A program made the translations under genes and the position numbers. The notes under the pieces are model-generated. The model did not search any database and was not told the origin of the DNA. It was given only the letters and a program-made list of their open reading frames with translations. A DNA stretch of 52,975 nt, taken from Escherichia phage phiEcoM-GJ1. Shown in pieces: positions 31,061-41,950 of this stretch (within the stretch, counting starts at the first letter, position 1; each line of letters begins with the position of its first letter). The stretch lies in the sequence record NC_010106.1; one strand, written 5' to 3'.

Positions 31061-32093
31061 CGACGAAGATACCGTGAATGAAGTAGTTTTGTTGAACGAC
31101 AAGGCTACTTTAACGACCCGTCGTTTACGTGACTCTGGCGAAATGATTGCAGAATGCACCATCGCTCGTACTGGCATCATGCTGTACAAAGCGAAAGAAC
31201 TTGGTGAAATTGCAAAACATCTGGACCCAGAATCTATTTGCCGTGTTCGTACCAAGCCGGAAGTATTATTTGACGAAGCAACCATCGAAGGCTGTCGTTC
31301 AATTCCGGTAACTATCGGCCATCCGAAAAATGATGTTAACATCAAGAACAACAAAGAACTCCAGAAAGGGTTCATCGAAGGGCGTCCAGTTGCAGACGGC
31401 TCTTTCTTGGCTGCATCAATCGTTTTGAATGACGAGCAAGCTATTCGATTAGTTGATTCTGGTGTTGACCAAATCTCCTTGGGCCATAATGCTGAACTGG
31501 CTGTATCAGAAGATGATGAAGCCGACTTCGATAAAGTTCGCATTATCCCTAACCATGCTGCAATTGTTGTTCGTGGTCGTGCTCAGACTACTCGCATTGG
31601 TGACTCTGGTGAAGAGATTGCCATTGTTGATAAGGCAACCTTTGACGTTGTTGAAGCAGAGCGTGATGCAGCGCTTGACAAGATTAGTGTCCTTGAACAG
31701 AAACTTGCTGATGCAGAAACTGCACGACTATCCGATGAAGCTATTCAGGCTGAGGTAGACAAACGTGTAGTTGCTCGTACAGCATTGCTTGTTGATGTGG
31801 CCCGTCTTGGCGACGAGTTCTCCAACCTCGATTTCTCCGGCAAGACCGATGCAGAAATTAAGTTGGCTGTAGTTAATAAATTGCATGATAAGGATTTCAG
31901 CGATAAGAGCGAAGACTATATCTCCGCCCGTTTCGATGCGGCCCTTGAAGATTGCGATTCCATTACTTTGGGAGATGCCCTGAATCAGTCTATGCAATTC
32001 GCTGCTAAGAAAGATTCAGAAGCTCGTAAACCTAAAGTTTCTATTTCCGAAGAAGCTAACAAACGTCGTTTAGAACGCTTCAACTCTTTATAA
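31029..32093 (+). CDS. prohead scaffolding/protease-like protein (putative)
   Basis: Between portal and capsid genes; C-terminal region is coiled-coil-like (VEAERDAALDKISVLEQKLADAETARL); the track ORF 30852.. overlaps the portal; start likely GTG 31029 or ATG 31143. Confidence 0.45.
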   Translation: MKQNQNLVQLNDEDTVNEVVLLNDKATLTTRRLRDSGEMIAECTIARTGIMLYKAKELGEIAKHLDPESICRVRTKPEVLFDEATIEGCRSIPVTIGHPKNDVNIKNNKELQKGFIEGRPVADGSFLAASIVLNDEQAIRLVDSGVDQISLGHNAELAVSEDDEADFDKVRIIPNHAAIVVRGRAQTTRIGDSGEEIAIVDKATFDVVEAERDAALDKISVLEQKLADAETARLSDEAIQAEVDKRVVARTALLVDVARLGDEFSNLDFSGKTDAEIKLAVVNKLHDKDFSDKSEDYISARFDAALEDCDSITLGDALNQSMQFAAKKDSEARKPKVSISEEANKRRLERFNSL

Positions 32094-32102
32094 GGTAAGA
32101 CA

Positions 32103-32576
32103 ATGCCAAAGCAAGATTGGTCTATTAATACTGGTGAAGCATATGCAGGTGAACAATATGGCCTGGCTACCACCAACTCCCAGCGCCTGACCTACGTTGC
32201 CGAAGAAGAAATGGCAAACTTTGGTCTGGCTGTTGTTCAAGGCACGGCATCCAATCAGGTTAAGCCTGGTATTGAATCCGACGGCACTGTTCTGGGCATT
32301 ACTATGCGCCAGATTAACATCGAATCTGCTACCCGTCCTGGTGATGGCACTGTTGCAATTAAAGCTGGCTGGCCTCTGGGCGTCATGCTGTCTGGCCCAA
32401 TCATGGTCAAACTGGTAACTGCAATCACCGATAAAGACATTGGCGTATCTGCCACTGGTCAATTTGGTGGTGTTGGTGCTGGCTATACTAAGGCAACCAA
32501 CCTGACTGCCCTGCGTTATCCGGCTGCTGCTGGTGATGTTGTTCCGGTCATGATTAACGTAGTCCCAAAGCCGTAA
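32103..32576 (+). CDS. capsid-associated protein (decoration-like), highly expressed
   Basis: 157-aa ORF with host-optimal codons immediately upstream of the major capsid gene; ends ...NVVPKP with a CCCAAAG heptamer two codons before the stop. Confidence 0.6.
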   Translation: MPKQDWSINTGEAYAGEQYGLATTNSQRLTYVAEEEMANFGLAVVQGTASNQVKPGIESDGTVLGITMRQINIESATRPGDGTVAIKAGWPLGVMLSGPIMVKLVTAITDKDIGVSATGQFGGVGAGYTKATNLTALRYPAAAGDVVPVMINVVPKP

Positions 32577-32869
32577 CGCCACCTCCAGCACCTACAGTAT
32601 CTGCTGTAGCTGCGGCTGTGACTGCGGATGCATCAACTTCTGATGCCACTGTGACTGTGGATAAGTTGTTTACGTTCGGCAACTCTACAGCAACGGACTA
32701 TAATTTCGCTGTTACACCTGCTGTGACTGGTGTTTCTGTGGCGGCAAACGGTACTGTGACTGTCTTGAGTGAGACAACCACTGCCACTTCTGCAACAATT
32801 AAGGCAACGAACAAAACAACCCCTAGCGTAACTGCAACTAAACAAATAGTTATTACGCCGAAGCCTTAA
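32558..32869 (+). CDS. Ig-like (Big_2-like) domain ORF in the -1 frame, probably expressed as a frameshift extension of the 32103 protein
   Basis: The -1 frame is open from 32558; encodes a Pro-rich linker PPPAPTVSAVAAA followed by a Thr/Val-rich beta-type domain; no RBS before its first in-frame GTG at 32618. Confidence 0.5.
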   Translation, partial: RSPKAVTPPPAPTVSAVAAAVTADASTSDATVTVDKLFTFGNSTATDYNFAVTPAVTGVSVAANGTVTVLSETTTATSATIKATNKTTPSVTATKQIVITPKP

Positions 32870-32924
32870 ATTGTACTGGCGCAATTAATCGTTGCGCCTA
32901 ACCAAACAAAATGGATTAAACTAC

Positions 32925-33932
32925 ATGCCAAAGATGATTAAACTGGCTGACGGTTCTGAATTTGAACTGAACGACGCCATCACCCGTATCCAGGATTCCG
33001 GCACTGTTGTCCTGAACGATGACGACGCAGTATTCTTTCAACGCCAGCTTGAGTTCATTGAAGCTCAAACTTACGACACTCTGTATCCTGAACTGGAAGC
33101 TCGTGCTGCTTTCGGTGTTGACACTACTGGCGGCGCTGGTATTAACACGCTGACCTACCGTTCGTACAACCATGTTGGTAAAGCTCAGGTAATCAACGCC
33201 CGTGCAACCGACCTGCCGAAGTCCAGCATTTCTGGCAAAGAATACAGCGTAACTGTTAAATCAGTTGGTACTGCATTCGACTACGATATTGATGAAGTAG
33301 CATCTGCTGCTGTCACCGGTCTGCCGCTGGAAACTCGTAAAGCAAATGCTGCGATTCGTGGTTACGAACAGTATGTGAACTCTGCTGCATGGTACGGCGA
33401 CCAGGCTAACGGCTTCGTTGGCTTCTTCGAAAACCCAGACATTACCAAAGCAACTGTTGCTCAGGGTGCTGGCGCTTCTACTAAGTGGAACGAGAAGACT
33501 CCGACCGAAGTTATTGCTGACCTGACCACTGCTGTGTCTGCGATGTATGCATCTACTCTGAAAATCATGCGTCCTTCCGAAATCTGGATGCCTGTTGAGC
33601 ACGAGCAGTACATCTTCAACACTGCACGTTCCGAGCAGTCTGACAAGACTATTGGTCAGTTCTTTATTGACAACAACCAGTTCATCAACTCCCGCGACAA
33701 AATCAAGGGTCTGAACGCTATCAAAGGTCATGGCGATGCTGGCTCTGATTGTTTCGTAGTTGTATGCCGCGAAGCTATGGGCAACCGTACCTTCCGTCTG
33801 CGTGAACCGCTGCCGTTAACTTGGCAACCAGTTCAGCTGCATGGCCTGATTTATGAAGTACCTGGCCGTGGTCGTTTCGCTGGCTTCCAGGCAATGTATC
33901 CGGCAGCAATCTCCATCAACTCCGGTATCTAA
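32925..33932 (+). CDS. major capsid protein (putative)
   Basis: About 335-aa ORF with host-optimal codon usage in the head module; start ATG 32925 or upstream TTG 32892; assigned by position, size and expression signature. Confidence 0.55.
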   Translation: MPKMIKLADGSEFELNDAITRIQDSGTVVLNDDDAVFFQRQLEFIEAQTYDTLYPELEARAAFGVDTTGGAGINTLTYRSYNHVGKAQVINARATDLPKSSISGKEYSVTVKSVGTAFDYDIDEVASAAVTGLPLETRKANAAIRGYEQYVNSAAWYGDQANGFVGFFENPDITKATVAQGAGASTKWNEKTPTEVIADLTTAVSAMYASTLKIMRPSEIWMPVEHEQYIFNTARSEQSDKTIGQFFIDNNQFINSRDKIKGLNAIKGHGDAGSDCFVVVCREAMGNRTFRLREPLPLTWQPVQLHGLIYEVPGRGRFAGFQAMYPAAISINSGI

Positions 33933-37603: not shown

Positions 37604-38062
37604 ATGGCTTGTGAATTGCTTCAACGTGAATTCACAAACTCCAAAGGCGAAACAGTGTTAGTCGTTGTTCGACAATTGTCGGCTTCGGCTGCACTGTCTC
37701 TTCACGCGGAGTTGGTAAGCAAGTTAGGCTCACGAGTATTTCCATTCATCGAAGGTAAATATAACTTCGCTGATATTATATACTTGATGCAGCAAGTAGA
37801 GCATACCGTATTCACAGAATTGTTTAAGCGTGTTATCAGCATGCACTCGTCCATAGACGGACAAGAAATCAAACCTGCATTATATGATATGCAGTTCAAT
37901 GGCGAATTGATGTTGTCTTGCCATGTCTTTGCTTTCGTGCTCGAAGCAAACTTCCTTGATTTTTTCAAGCAAGGGCTCGAAATCAACGAACAGAGACGAT
38001 TGGAGGCGGAGGAAGCATCCAAGCTGGCAGAGCAGAAGAATTCGAGTCCGGAGACAGTTTAG
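37604..38062 (+). CDS. tail assembly chaperone (G-like)
   Basis: 152-aa ORF upstream of the tape-measure-position gene; contains slippery heptamer T TTT TTC where the -1 frame opens. Confidence 0.55.
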   Translation: MACELLQREFTNSKGETVLVVVRQLSASAALSLHAELVSKLGSRVFPFIEGKYNFADIIYLMQQVEHTVFTELFKRVISMHSSIDGQEIKPALYDMQFNGELMLSCHVFAFVLEANFLDFFKQGLEINEQRRLEAEEASKLAEQKNSSPETV

Positions 38063-38238
38063 TATCCCTGTTCCCCGACATAAAATATTTTCTGCATCGT
38101 CCTATAATCGAAGACAGTTCTCTCTGCAAGTTACGTGAATTGCAGGATGGAACCTATTCGATTATGGACTTATTGCTATTCCACGACATTCTCGATTTGC
38201 GTAAGAAACTCGAACCAGTAGATGAAGACAATGGCTAA
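37960..38238 (+). other. -1 frame extension of the tail chaperone (GT-like frameshift product)
   Basis: The -1 frame opens at 37960 at the heptamer TTTTTTC (37960-37966) and runs to 38238, overlapping the next gene start by 17 nt. Confidence 0.5.
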
Positions 38239-41200
38239 TCAAAAAGATTTAATGAAGTTGAGCGTTAATGAGTTAATTGCATTAGGCTCTCAAAGCGGTC
38301 TGACTTTCCATGCTGGTATGAAGAAGTCGCACATGGTTCAACAACTTAGTGCGAGCGCTGCTTCGGGATGGCTGGATACAAATGCAGAATTAATGGGTGG
38401 GTCGTTTGAAGATGACAGTTTAATTACTGAATCTCTTGGCGACTCTTCCATGATTTCAGACGCTGCCCACATTGCACAAGTGCTTTCAAGTGCTGGCTAC
38501 ACAGAAGCATTTCATGCAGCAATGAATGGCCCAACACACCATGTAGAAGCTGTTCACGCATACATGGAAAGGCTTGGTGTCAACACAGATGATGTGTGGA
38601 TGCACATGCCAAAGCCAAATCCGAACTTACCGCAAGGTAGCTTCAACATGCTTAATGCGTACATGCGTGATACGCTGGCAGGTCATCAAGATATAATGCC
38701 GGAACTTCCTGGTCATTACACTGGTGACATTATGGGTGAATACTCTACAAACCGTGGAGATATTGCCAAATCTATGGGCTATCTTGCTCATATGTATGTT
38801 GACCGTCAACAATATGACGACCCAGACCGCTATGCACGAGATGTTTATCGTGTAGCCAAACGTTTAGAATCAGAATTGCCGCAAAACTTCCGTGAAGTTG
38901 CTGCTGTATCTGCAATGAATGTAGGTAATAAGTCGGGGCCAAGAGTTTCATACATGGATTCTCTCCCTCAACTTGGTTCCGAATCTATTGTTGGTGATAT
39001 TCAACATCCTCGCCAACCACTTAACGCATCTGGCCTACCTTTAGGCTCTATGGGTTCTGGCATTAAAGCTGAATATTCTTTATCTGCATCATTATCTGGC
39101 TCCCCAGGTTGGTCTGATGCAAGTAAATCTTTATATCAAGATGTATCTGGCGCAGTTAAATCTGCTGCTAAGGTATATGCTGGTGGTTCAGAACGAGGGA
39201 TGAACGCATATCGCACTCAATCTTCTGACCGAGATTTGATTCTTGATTCTGCATCTCGTTATACAGACCTTGCAGATGCTCGTTCTGGTTATGACAACCT
39301 AAAGAAAGATATTGGTGATGACCCTCGTTACTCTGGTGCATCTATTCGTGGCGTACTGGAAAATGCTCACCAATATAATGAAGCTGAAATCAGTAAGACT
39401 TTCGACCCTGCTGAACGTTTAAGAAATACTGGACCTACTGAACTTAGTACATCCAATGAGTTTACGGCAAATCTAAATGAACCGACAAGTTGGAACTCTG
39501 CAAGGGATAGAAGAGAGTCTATTGCTATTGCAAATCTCGATAGTGCTAGCGTTGGACAGCATAGTTCGGTTAAGTACCACGATGCGCTCGAACAAGGTAC
39601 GCAGGAGTGGCTTGATTTTCGTAAGCAGTATGATATTACTGGCTCTACTATTGGTGACTATCTGGGCCACAACCCCGCAACCAATAATAGCCCAATACAT
39701 ACAATGGGCGAAAAGATTGGCCTCACAGTAAGAAAGGATTCCCCACGAGCGCGCGAGAACTTTGAGCGTGGACATAGATTAGAGGCGTGGGCCAGACCCA
39801 GGGTAGGTGAACGATATGGGATTGAAATAACTGAAACTGGTGCAATCACAAACGACGACTATCCTGGCATGATGTACTCGCCTGATGGGCTAATTGGTGA
39901 TGATGCTTTGTGGGAACATAAAGCTCCAAATAACTTTAAAGATTTGGAAACAACTCCAAACTACATGGACCAGATGCAACTTGGTATGCATTTGAGTGGC
40001 CGTAGTCGCACACTGTTTACCCAAACTGTTGGCGAAGAGTCCAGAAGTCAGTGGGTTGAAGCCGACCCAACGTGGTTTGAACGTAACAAGAACAAGATTA
40101 TATCCTCTCAAGCACGCATGAATGCTGGACGCGAGTTTATGGAAAGCTCCGACCTTGAGGGAAAAGACCTTGTTAATGAAACCCGCAAAGTTATGTCTGG
40201 TGATGGAATTTGGGGCTACCAGACTCGTGACCACAGGGAAGGTGAGGGATATACTGCTGGCAAGCGCGGGATGGCTAAATATAGTGCTGCTGCTGGCACT
40301 GCTGCTGACCCGTTTATTGGCTCCCATTCTCCCTACAATCCAGAGGCATCTCGTTCAGGCTACCAACCAAACTTTGTAATGCACGAGCAAAACTTTCCAG
40401 CAACCACAGGAAATGGTGATACTGGAAATGACTCGATGGCATTGTCTGTTAAGAAAGGTATCCTTGCTGCTCAGGAAGAGAATAAGCAAAAGGGTATTGG
40501 TGCAGACGCAGACTTTGATGGCAAAGCTGATTCAATGGGTTGGAATCAGGAACGATTTGATGCTGCCAATGGTGGTGGAAGTGGTGGCGGCGGTGGTCGT
40601 GGCGGCTACTTCACAAGTGGTGGCAACTACTTCGATGACTACGGTCGTATGGGTGGTTCACTTGCTGCTGGCATTGCTGGTGGCAGTATTGGTTCGGCAA
40701 CCAACGGAGTTATGCAAGCATTGATGGCAACTCCTGCCGGACGTATGGCTGCTGTAGGCATTGGTGCTATTCAGATTGGCAATGAAGCTGCTGAATACAT
40801 GAATGACTTTATCGGCAACTCGCTTGATGCTGGTGTTATGAATCCTAATGAATATTCTTCCATGTCGCAAGGCTTGGAGATGTTAGGACTCAACTCACAA
40901 CAAGCGGCACGTATGAATCAAACCACACATAGTGCCTACAACACCATGCTTAACGGCGACCCCAGCGCCGCTGTGAACATCGTTCGCGGCAGTAGGGGAT
41001 TGCTCACCATAGGTGATATTCGCTCGACTGGCGGCGACCCTGTTGCCCTCGCTCGCATTATGCAGGAAAGAGGCAAGGAACGTGGCTGGAGTCAGGCCCG
41101 TATCGCTGGTGCTGCGCAGATGGCTGGGCTGGATGGTATGGCTCGTGCCTTCGACCGCACGGAATACAGCCATGAGCGAGCAGGTTCGGTGGTAGAAAGT

Positions 41201-41950
41201 GGTAGAAACTCTGACTTTGCCGAAGGTATGGCTCAATCAGAAATGTTGCAGGTGGAGCGCGCACAGCTTCTGCCAGGGTATAACGTGCCACAAAGTGTGC
41301 TATCTCATGGTGCTGCACTGTTCGAAGCTGGAAGCACTGCTGCTGGTGCTGCTAACTCTGGATACAGCCAAGCCCGACAAGTTGCTGCAAACGTTTATGA
41401 TTTCATTGCTGGTGAAGAGTCTGGTGGCAAGGAATACAACAAGGATGGTACACGAGTTACAAGCCCGACTGGTGCTCGTGGAATCATGCAGGTTCTTCCT
41501 TCTACTGCTCGTGACCCAGGTTACGGAATCAAACCTTCTGATGGAAGTCCTGAAGATGATGCTCGTGTCGGTCGTGAATACTACGATGCGATGTATAAAC
41601 GATTCGGTGGCGACCATGAGAAAGCAATGGCTGCTTACACGGATGGTGCTGGAACTGTTGACAAGGCTGTCGATAAGTTTGGAATGGATTGGCTCAGTGC
41701 TGTTCCGGCTCAGGCTCAGAAACGTGTTAAAGCATTCCGTGAATGGTCCAAATCTTCTCAATCTTTGGAAGAAGGTGCTACAGGGTTTACTCGCAATGGA
41801 ATGTCCTACGGTCAAACCCAAACTGTTGTCAATGTTAAGATTGATGCTAAGGTCAACAACCAGGTTGCTTCTGCTACAGTTGCAGTTCCTGGTGGCCAGA
41901 CTGTAACTCAACAAATGAACATGAACAACGGTGCACAACAAAGACGTTAA
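38222..41950 (+). CDS. large multidomain virion protein at the tape-measure position: HeH-like N-terminus, lambda-exonuclease/YqaJ-like PD-(D/E)XK nuclease domain, Gly-rich region, lytic transglycosylase (SLT) domain
   Basis: 1242 aa; N-terminal L..L.V.EL..L motif (Rho-N/HeH-like); residues ~440-640 contain QGTQEWLDFR...ITGSTIGDYLG and YSPDGLIGDDALWEHKAP...YMDQMQLGM, matching the lambda exonuclease/YqaJ active-site pattern; GGGSGGGGGRGG tract; C-terminal GEESGG...SPTGARGIMQV...AYTDGAG matches the SLT signature. Confidence 0.7.
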   Translation: MKTMANQKDLMKLSVNELIALGSQSGLTFHAGMKKSHMVQQLSASAASGWLDTNAELMGGSFEDDSLITESLGDSSMISDAAHIAQVLSSAGYTEAFHAAMNGPTHHVEAVHAYMERLGVNTDDVWMHMPKPNPNLPQGSFNMLNAYMRDTLAGHQDIMPELPGHYTGDIMGEYSTNRGDIAKSMGYLAHMYVDRQQYDDPDRYARDVYRVAKRLESELPQNFREVAAVSAMNVGNKSGPRVSYMDSLPQLGSESIVGDIQHPRQPLNASGLPLGSMGSGIKAEYSLSASLSGSPGWSDASKSLYQDVSGAVKSAAKVYAGGSERGMNAYRTQSSDRDLILDSASRYTDLADARSGYDNLKKDIGDDPRYSGASIRGVLENAHQYNEAEISKTFDPAERLRNTGPTELSTSNEFTANLNEPTSWNSARDRRESIAIANLDSASVGQHSSVKYHDALEQGTQEWLDFRKQYDITGSTIGDYLGHNPATNNSPIHTMGEKIGLTVRKDSPRARENFERGHRLEAWARPRVGERYGIEITETGAITNDDYPGMMYSPDGLIGDDALWEHKAPNNFKDLETTPNYMDQMQLGMHLSGRSRTLFTQTVGEESRSQWVEADPTWFERNKNKIISSQARMNAGREFMESSDLEGKDLVNETRKVMSGDGIWGYQTRDHREGEGYTAGKRGMAKYSAAAGTAADPFIGSHSPYNPEASRSGYQPNFVMHEQNFPATTGNGDTGNDSMALSVKKGILAAQEENKQKGIGADADFDGKADSMGWNQERFDAANGGGSGGGGGRGGYFTSGGNYFDDYGRMGGSLAAGIAGGSIGSATNGVMQALMATPAGRMAAVGIGAIQIGNEAAEYMNDFIGNSLDAGVMNPNEYSSMSQGLEMLGLNSQQAARMNQTTHSAYNTMLNGDPSAAVNIVRGSRGLLTIGDIRSTGGDPVALARIMQERGKERGWSQARIAGAAQMAGLDGMARAFDRTEYSHERAGSVVESGRNSDFAEGMAQSEMLQVERAQLLPGYNVPQSVLSHGAALFEAGSTAAGAANSGYSQARQVAANVYDFIAGEESGGKEYNKDGTRVTSPTGARGIMQVLPSTARDPGYGIKPSDGSPEDDARVGREYYDAMYKRFGGDHEKAMAAYTDGAGTVDKAVDKFGMDWLSAVPAQAQKRVKAFREWSKSSQSLEEGATGFTRNGMSYGQTQTVVNVKIDAKVNNQVASATVAVPGGQTVTQQMNMNNGAQQRR

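Follow-up and report, generated by a model that had tools for sequence, protein, structure and literature searches.

In Escherichia phage phiEcoM-GJ1, a member of the Chaseviridae (subfamily Cleopatravirinae) analysed here over the whole 52,975-nt stretch of its sequence record NC_010106.1 (hereafter the window), the 157-amino-acid (aa) open reading frame (ORF) that precedes the major capsid protein gene is a capsid cement protein of the PF22758 family. We consider it highly probable that a -1 frameshift at the C CCA AAG heptamer located close to the end of this gene (positions 32564-32570) yields a predicted second product, in which the cement protein is fused to an immunoglobulin (Ig)-like domain. 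The evidence from this genome alone is weak; it is the conservation of the site, of its phase and of the open frame across relatives that lifts the signal far above chance. The features on which the argument bears are as follows:

32103..32576, + strand: gene of the short capsid cement protein, zero frame, 157 aa, stop included (ORF list; PF22758)
32564..32570, + strand: slippery heptamer C CCA AAG, proposed -1 shift site (sequence read, phase computed)
32574..32576, + strand: zero-frame stop codon TAA, one codon past the heptamer (sequence read)
32570..32617, + strand: Pro/Ala-rich linker AVTPPPAPTVSAVAAA, -1 frame, 16 codons, with no start codon (translation)
32618..32869, + strand: Ig-like beta-sandwich domain, -1 frame, with its stop codon TAA at 32867-32869 (AlphaFold2, Foldseek and ratio of non-synonymous to synonymous substitutions, dN/dS)
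32103..32869, + strand: predicted 255-aa transframe product, which would consist of M1-K156 from the zero frame (156 residues) and 99 residues from the -1 frame
32580..32620, + strand: imperfect hairpin that starts 9 nt past the heptamer and might act as a stimulator in the window alone, nothing comparable being seen in other genera (minimum free energy fold)

The cement protein and the start-less frame that follows it

The cement gene starts with the ATG at 32103 and ends with the zero-frame codons GTA GTC CCA AAG CCG TAA, so that its 157-aa product terminates in NVVPKP. The heptamer stands in the X XXY YYZ phase relative to this ORF, and the translation of the window shows the -1 frame to be open from 32558 to 32869. 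An earlier note on this DNA, made from the sequence alone, had described the same ORF, heptamer and open frame, with coordinates that all proved to be exact. Reading after the slip would give ...NVVPK-AVTPPPAPTVSAVAAAVTADAS...KQIVITPKP and then the stop, and the predicted transframe junction consists of ...VMINVVPK followed by the tryptic peptide AVTPPPAPTVSAVAAAVTADASTSDATVTVDK, K156 and A157 being the junction residues.

The 157-aa ORF matched the Pfam family Phage_cement (PF22758, 'E217 gp24/Pam3 gp6') over profile positions 4-146 of 146, with an expectation value (E) of 5.8e-17 and a score of 62.6 bits (cut-off 27), as well as PHROG 563, a virion structural protein. Its homologues similarly carry PF22758, and mostly PF23982 too. 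The cement and extension halves were modelled separately. The AlphaFold2 model of the cement half (34 homologues) had a predicted local distance difference test score (pLDDT) of 83.6, and the Foldseek search performed with this model returned as best match the cyanophage Pam3 protein 8hdt_G (E 2e-6; template modelling score, TM, 0.69). Further matches were to T1 (9kzj_I, E 1.5e-5), HFTV1, FCWL1, Sf11 and E217 (8frs_f), and to the base through which the phi29 head fibre binds its capsid (6qyy, E 4e-4). It is worth noting that a search of the PDB sequences with the cement profile gave no match, and that it was the fold search that found the cement structures. The profile match, the resemblance to cement proteins of solved capsids and the position of the gene between those of the protease and the capsid protein all bear out the earlier note, which had called the protein capsid-associated. 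By analogy with T1 and Pam3, from which its placement on the capsid is taken, the cement protein would form trimers of the beta-tulip type.

The 99-aa extension was modelled by AlphaFold2 (16 sequences) as a nine-strand beta-sandwich, with a pLDDT of 93.1 and a predicted TM score of 0.81. Its best Foldseek match in the PDB was the Ig-like domain found in T5 tail-tube protein pb6 (5ngj, E 2.7e-4, TM 0.62), next came the phi29 capsid protein gp8 (6qvk), then Rib and invasin (probability 1.00 and TM about 0.6 for these best matches), and the extension also matches PHROG 13745 'Ig domain containing protein' (E 6e-7). As for the cassettes found in relatives, their Ig_3/I-set matches were below the Pfam thresholds (best E 1.7e-5). 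The label 'Ig-like', which the earlier note had given to the extension, is upheld by the modelled fold and by the PHROG match, and finds no counterpart in the Pfam profile search; it would hold by fold and not by Pfam membership.

The extension has the substitution pattern of a protein read in the -1 frame. Among the window-type sequences, the variable sites are distributed over the three -1 codon positions as 38/34/85 (domain) and 7/7/13 (linker), with an excess at the third. Pairwise dN/dS values calculated against the window are 0.08-0.19 for the extension in the -1 frame, as compared to 1.2-3.0 in the other two frames, and to 0.14-0.30 for the cement gene. Because the low values occur in the -1 frame only, we regard the extension as a protein under purifying selection. 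The linker itself is conserved as protein across genera, with the consensus PK(A/V)VTPP(P)AP(T/S)V(S/T)AVA, and its synonymous codon changes outnumber the non-synonymous ones in most comparisons.

No start codon or ribosome-binding site that could serve this protein is conserved. ATG is absent from the extension of every window-type genome, and ATG, GTG and TTG are all absent from the 16 linker codons of the window. The first GTG of the window extension is codon 17 (32618), and the stretch located 4-18 nt upstream of it has no match to a Shine-Dalgarno (SD) sequence. The position of the first GTG/TTG varies between codons 10 and 58 in window-type extensions, and is codon 80 in the Fifi451 type. 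No SD is conserved across relatives (best matches of 3-5 nt), and the search for an independent promoter gave a single promoter-like match, at chance level. These results confirm the view of the earlier note that the downstream frame has no ribosome-binding site of its own. In GenBank, five records annotate the downstream ORF, each with a different start; a gap is left at the extension in Mauresque, phiA050, PP101, PYps3T and Fifi451; and a joined coding sequence is annotated in none of the 15 records inspected. The fused cement-Ig form is also absent from a 5.8-billion-protein database, which yielded 95 cement homologues of 145-177 aa and 16 extension homologues of 70-155 aa.

Conservation of the heptamer and of the extension across relatives

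Within the window, CCCAAAG occurs 6 times, versus 6.15 expected, and the -1 frame is open past stops over a median of 56 codons, such open frames being common because the next gene usually starts there. An in-phase XXXYYYZ heptamer occurs within the last 22 codons of 8 of the 120 ORFs of the window, and it is only in the cement ORF that this heptamer is of the X XXA AAG type, with the A AAG that is efficient in E. coli. As the heptamer frequency is at chance and open -1 frames are common, single-genome statistics were dropped in favour of comparative evidence.

Counting the window itself, the comparison covered 34 distinct loci, drawn from GenBank phages, IMG/VR and metagenomes. In 24 of these loci, the heptamer is in phase, the stop follows it after 0-1 codons and the -1 frame stays open for 93-192 codons. 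They are the window, phages of the genera Carltongylesvirus, Loessnervirus, Faunusvirus and Suwonvirus, Aeromonas phage phiA050, and uncultured contigs from IMG/VR and metagenomes. Of these, 23 have C CCA AAG and the remaining one (L033/L045, at about 1961-1975) has C CCA AAA, in a junction that reads GGC CCA AAA GCC TAA, versus GGC CCA AAG CCG TAA, with the same length and the -1 relation kept. This change looks like a compensated pair that preserves both the slipperiness and the frame relation. The residues before Pro-Lys vary (VVPK, VGPK, ALPK, AAPK, VSPK) while the CCC is kept. Conversely, 8 loci have neither the extension nor the heptamer, among them the Nefertitivirinae phages Spp001, pAh6-C and VPs20, as well as a locus (L050) whose cement protein is 89% identical to that of the window. 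Together, the occurrence of heptamer, phase and open frame in the 24 loci, the purifying selection in the -1 frame only and the joint absence in the 8 loci support the -1 frameshift that the earlier note had predicted.

Two further loci keep the heptamer next to a decayed or truncated extension. In Yersinia phage PYps3T (L011, 1656-1850), the PPPAP linker and the mid-domain have been lost (internal deletion and indel), and a late frame break leaves the remnant IAITPKP in another frame; PYps3T, a viable phage, appears to have lost its long isoform naturally. In the metagenome contig OGVK01000246.1 (L042, 1960-2664), the heptamer is present and the -1 frame is shut after 12 codons; next come a 214-aa ORF, which has an ATG and matches no Pfam family, and then AT-rich sequence where the capsid gene is expected. 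This contig may be a different insertion or an assembly chimera.

The proposed frameshift and its alternatives

We propose that most ribosomes would stop at the TAA (32574), to yield the 157-aa form, and that a minority would slip back by one base on C CCA AAG. In this tandem slip, the P-site tRNA-Pro would re-pair from CCA to CCC and the tRNA-Lys from AAG to AAA, so that the next codon decoded would be GCC (Ala), and the shifted ribosomes would read the linker and the Ig-like domain down to the TAA at 32867, to produce the 255-aa long form. Since the capsid-binding domain is common to both forms, both would be built into the cement lattice, the long one pointing its Ig-like domain outward from the capsid, and the frameshift efficiency would set the number of long forms per capsid. 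We infer this slippage, its efficiency and the incorporation of the long form from the comparisons presented here; the Ig-like domain would presumably bind surface glycans, and weakly. A single enterobacterial tRNA-Lys is said, after the work of Tsuchihashi and Brown in 1992, to read both AAA and AAG, with a weak pairing on AAG and an easy slip to AAA. The heptamer C_CCA_AAG is, alongside G GGA AAG, highly shift-prone in E. coli (PMC5009743).

Could the downstream ORF be a small gene in its own right, which ribosomes would enter at a GTG/TTG of its own, or through reinitiation once they have terminated at the cement stop? We think this very improbable, even though GenBank annotates an 'Ig domain containing protein', the window has the GTG at 32618 and the proximity of the upstream stop makes reinitiation possible in principle. 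There is no ATG and no SD, the annotated start differs in every record, and the linker, which lies upstream of every candidate start, is conserved as protein. Moreover, the first start comes at codon 58 of 100 in phiA050, at codon 80 of 95 in Fifi451 and at codon 52 in flopper, that is, so late that the full domain could not be made from it. A free 8-kDa Ig-like domain would also have no capsid anchor, and heptamer and extension go hand in hand, in their presence as in their absence. Even less probable, in our opinion, is that an ancestral in-frame cement-Ig fusion was interrupted by a 1-nt indel and left the extension behind as a non-functional remnant, such that only the 157-aa protein is made and the heptamer merely encodes Pro-Lys. 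This explanation has to account for a -1 frame with a dN/dS as low as, or below, that of the cement gene, which stays open over synonymous distances (dS) of up to about 2, and for unrelated cassettes inserted in the same -1 register, a tandem duplication kept in frame and the absence of an in-frame version among the relatives represented in the 5.8-billion-protein database. In its favour, the in-frame fusion of T1 makes an in-frame ancestor conceivable, PYps3T shows that the region can decay, and the Pro-Lys C-terminus belongs to the cement protein.

We give the same very low probability to another type of recoding, be it the slippage of the tRNA-Lys alone on A AAG beside a slow stop, or the slippage of RNA polymerase. 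The stop always lies 0-1 codons from the site, and Proteus phage Myduc has only A AAG by the stop (G GCA AAG TAA) and yet a full open -1 extension. However, the three C's that precede AAAG are kept in all but one of the extension-bearing lineages sampled, and because they are kept despite varying preceding residues (V-P, G-P, L-P, A-P, S-P) they indicate P-site re-pairing. Regarding the polymerase, a run of three A's is far too short for it to slip. In Myduc itself (L014/L036, 1660-2006), the cement gene and its stop are followed by a start-less -1 ORF of 111 codons, which encodes a Pro-rich linker and an I-set-like domain, and single-tRNA slippage on A AAG beside the stop may operate in this phage.

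Several observations nevertheless weigh against the cement-Ig frameshift. No conserved structure was found downstream of the heptamer, the individual folds of 8 genomes sharing no element, and no SD-like site occurs 10-14 nt before the heptamer in the window sequence; because no stimulatory element is conserved, the efficiency could be very low. The window extension matches no Pfam family, even at E up to 5. Pairwise similarity to T1 gp48 or gp49 was detected neither by BLASTP nor by hhalign, so that the parallel with T1 rests on the Pfam family, the fold and the gene order. Since the extension has decayed in PYps3T and PYps16T, the long form can be dispensed with, at least under some circumstances, and Myduc combines the same layout with a sequence incapable of tandem re-pairing. 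Finally, no proteomic or structural paper on a chasevirus able to show the 255-aa form was found.

As possible stimulators we considered the hairpin at 32580-32620 of the window, where the region 32540-32620 has a minimum free energy of -23.8 kcal/mol (z -2.1), and the only element retrieved by the alignment fold, a 7-bp stem located about 21-24 nt downstream (-4.6 kcal/mol). This stem was rejected as weak, too far away and mostly explained by conserved codons. The GGTGAT motif present about 25 nt upstream was likewise rejected as an SD-like stimulator, because it lies too far from the heptamer and encodes a conserved Gly-Asp. Some phage shift sites, for example that of lambda G/GT, need no stimulator, and a low level of shifting would fit the stoichiometry of T1.

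Known systems, cassette exchange and neighbouring features

The T1 capsid, as seen by cryo-electron microscopy (PDB 9KZJ), has 80 gp49 homotrimers and 60 heterotrimers made of one gp48 and two gp49, which sit on quasi-threefold axes; the C-terminal residues 154-255 of gp48 form a weak, flexible outward protrusion, which, according to the authors, may help adsorption (PMC11945409). The long form is a minority there, with 60 of the 420 subunits by the copies reported (60 versus 360). In our searches, T1 gp49 (ST49, 158 aa) matched Phage_cement only (E 2.2e-30), whereas T1 gp48 (ST48, 255 aa) matched, in one frame, both Phage_cement at residues 8-143 (E 1.8e-17) and Big_2 at residues 176-240 (E 4.6e-7). 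In the T1 sequence (L049, 13744-15049), ST48 is still annotated 'hypothetical protein' in RefSeq, despite these two domains and its model in the capsid.

The window resembles T1 by the cement family PF22758, by the portal/DUF2213 protease/cement/PF09950 capsid gene module, and by a short form accompanied by a long form, predicted in the window, that ends in an Ig-like domain and has, in both phages, the same order of domains and a length of 255 aa. It differs from T1, which uses two paralogous genes with their own starts, a terminator between them and no frameshift, and the Ig-like domain of which is a recognisable Big_2, whereas the window extension has no Pfam match. Short and Ig-tipped long cement subunits on one capsid are an architecture observed in T1, the capsid of which carries both forms from two genes; by analogy, this speaks for the two capsid-surface isoforms that the earlier note had predicted. 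The two phages would make a clean pair, in which the same architecture of the capsid is reached either from a single recoded gene or from two paralogues.

The idea that mobile Ig-like domains land out of frame was reportedly put forward by Fraser et al. in 2006. It is the explanation offered for the addition of Ig-like domains by frameshifting in T3 (10A/10B), in Lactobacillus phage A2, in Listeria phages A118 and A500 (-1) and in PSA (+1), and all the cases named there concern major capsid or major tail proteins (PMC5009743). The remark of the earlier note that other phages append such domains in this way is borne out by T3, A2, A118 and A500. As proposed for the window, a shift near the end of a structural gene generates a minor long isoform in these phages, hence two products per gene, and in T3 and A2 the long isoform's Ig-like domain is on the capsid surface, as predicted here. 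By contrast, the carrier is an HK97-fold major capsid protein in T3, A2 and the Listeria phages, versus an accessory beta-tulip cement protein here, and the slippery sequences and stimulators differ as well. Frameshift-appended Ig-like domains are known; the cement protein as their carrier appears to be new. In the literature that could be searched, we found no description of a frameshifted cement or decoration protein, or of any such protein for the Chaseviridae, and the original genome papers on phiEcoM-GJ1 and Y2 might mention it.

Other systems share single aspects with the window. Lambda G/GT (G GGA AAG) has the same X XXA AAG heptamer class, the single tRNA-Lys and a minority long form (PMC5009743), but it produces an assembly chaperone that stays outside the virion, with an appended part that is not Ig-like. 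Similarly to the predicted long form, T4 Hoc, T5 pb10 and N4 gp17 show Ig-like domains outward from a capsid-binding module; they differ from it by a single reading frame, by unrelated capsid-binding domains and by a location at hexamer centres, not at threefold axes. In the phi29 head fibre gp8.5, the N-terminal base has the same fold as the cement protein and the C-terminal part projects away from the capsid, but this projection is a coiled-coil fibre encoded in frame.

The region behind the heptamer is also a place of exchange. Between phage Y2 and Erwinia phage Nougat, which are assigned to the same species, homology ends 10 nt past the cement stop and resumes 10 nt past the end of the Y2 extension, and Nougat has in between an unrelated I-set-like domain and an extra ORF. 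This ORF (L019, 1980-2309; 109 aa, own ATG, no Pfam match) follows the Ig-like extension and precedes the capsid gene. The same junction is occupied by at least four types of extension that are unrelated to one another: the window type, the I-set/Hoc-like type, the Fifi451/L032 type and that of Myduc. The I-set/Hoc-like type (Nougat, L027-L031) matches PHROG 158 (E 9e-28) and PHROG 2973 'Hoc-like head decoration' (E 2e-23). Two window-type Ig-like domains stand in tandem, in frame, in flopper (L007/L023) and in L037. The flopper extension comprises 193 codons (about 2962-3549 in L007), and since its copies are joined as ...IKPKP-PAPTVSAV..., the repeat unit runs from linker to linker. The records of JL1, DE15 and SA91KD each contain two matching places.

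A -1 register that is read explains why foreign domains are always inserted in that register, which is hard to explain otherwise, and the slip site and the linker appear to constitute a conserved junction for the swapping of Ig-like cassettes among related phages. More speculatively, the slip site and the Pro-rich linker might be a dedicated 'docking port' for surface-display cassettes in the Cleopatravirinae (at least four Ig-like types, tandem copies and extra ORFs), with a frameshift efficiency tuned so that, at some of the sites, about one subunit of each cement trimer is long; we put this forward tentatively and hold it to be possible, though somewhat doubtful. If true, one gene does what T1 does with two paralogues and 1:2 heterotrimers, frameshifting is an evolutionary alternative to gene duplication for mixed-subunit capsid lattices, and the junction is a hotspot of host- or niche-adaptive surface variation.

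The cement-Ig frameshift would correct the annotation in the genera sampled, where the 'hypothetical / Ig protein' ORF, or the gap left in its place, would become the C-terminal half of a second cement isoform. The subfamily affected comprises therapeutically used coliphages and phages of plant pathogens (Erwinia, Pectobacterium, Yersinia). Accessory cement proteins would also join the major capsid and tail proteins as recipients of Ig-like domains delivered by frameshifting. For engineering, the locus would offer a natural junction at which Ig-like domains of about 10 kDa are exchanged, as one copy or as tandem copies, and which would serve phage display or the engineering of surface adhesion, with a display copy number that would be set by the frameshift efficiency.

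The genes of this region are arranged in the order portal (PF06381), DUF2213 prohead protease/scaffold, 157-aa ORF, -1 ORF and major capsid protein (PF09950), the two flanking genes being as follows:

31092..32093, + strand: prohead protease/scaffold gene, DUF2213 (Pfam PF09979, E 6.7e-31)
32928..33932, + strand: gene of the major capsid protein, with which the cement protein partners (Pfam Major_capside PF09950, E 3.2e-46)

The start of the protease gene, which is labelled head maturation protease in the records of relatives, is not settled, since 31092 is where the tested stretch begins, and the mechanical ORF extends back to 30852. Over this part of the genome, EcoM1 and PO103-1, both E. 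coli phages, share about 92% identity with the window, and Mangalitsa and ST32 share 90-91%. The GenBank record PP952070.1, 'Staphylococcus phage Pel53' (host S. hyicus), shares 91.7% identity with positions 32000-33000 of the window, and its host assignment looks doubtful.

In the 58-nt gap between the stop of the extension and the start of the capsid gene, an 8-bp hairpin, GGCGCAAU-UAAUC-GUUGCGCC, occurs at 32878-32898 (-13.3 kcal/mol for 32860-32930). It is not terminator-like, since no T-run follows it, and similar hairpins were seen by eye at the equivalent place in PYps3T and Nougat. The window also contains a second -1 frameshift signal, of canonical type, T TTT TTC (37960-37966), in phase in a 152-aa ORF upstream of the tape-measure gene (1242 aa, 38222-41950). 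The -1 frame opens exactly at this heptamer, a TGA standing just before it, and runs over 93 codons to 38238, and the chaperone-type frameshift region as a whole (37604-38238) is the usual G/GT arrangement of the tail-assembly chaperones.

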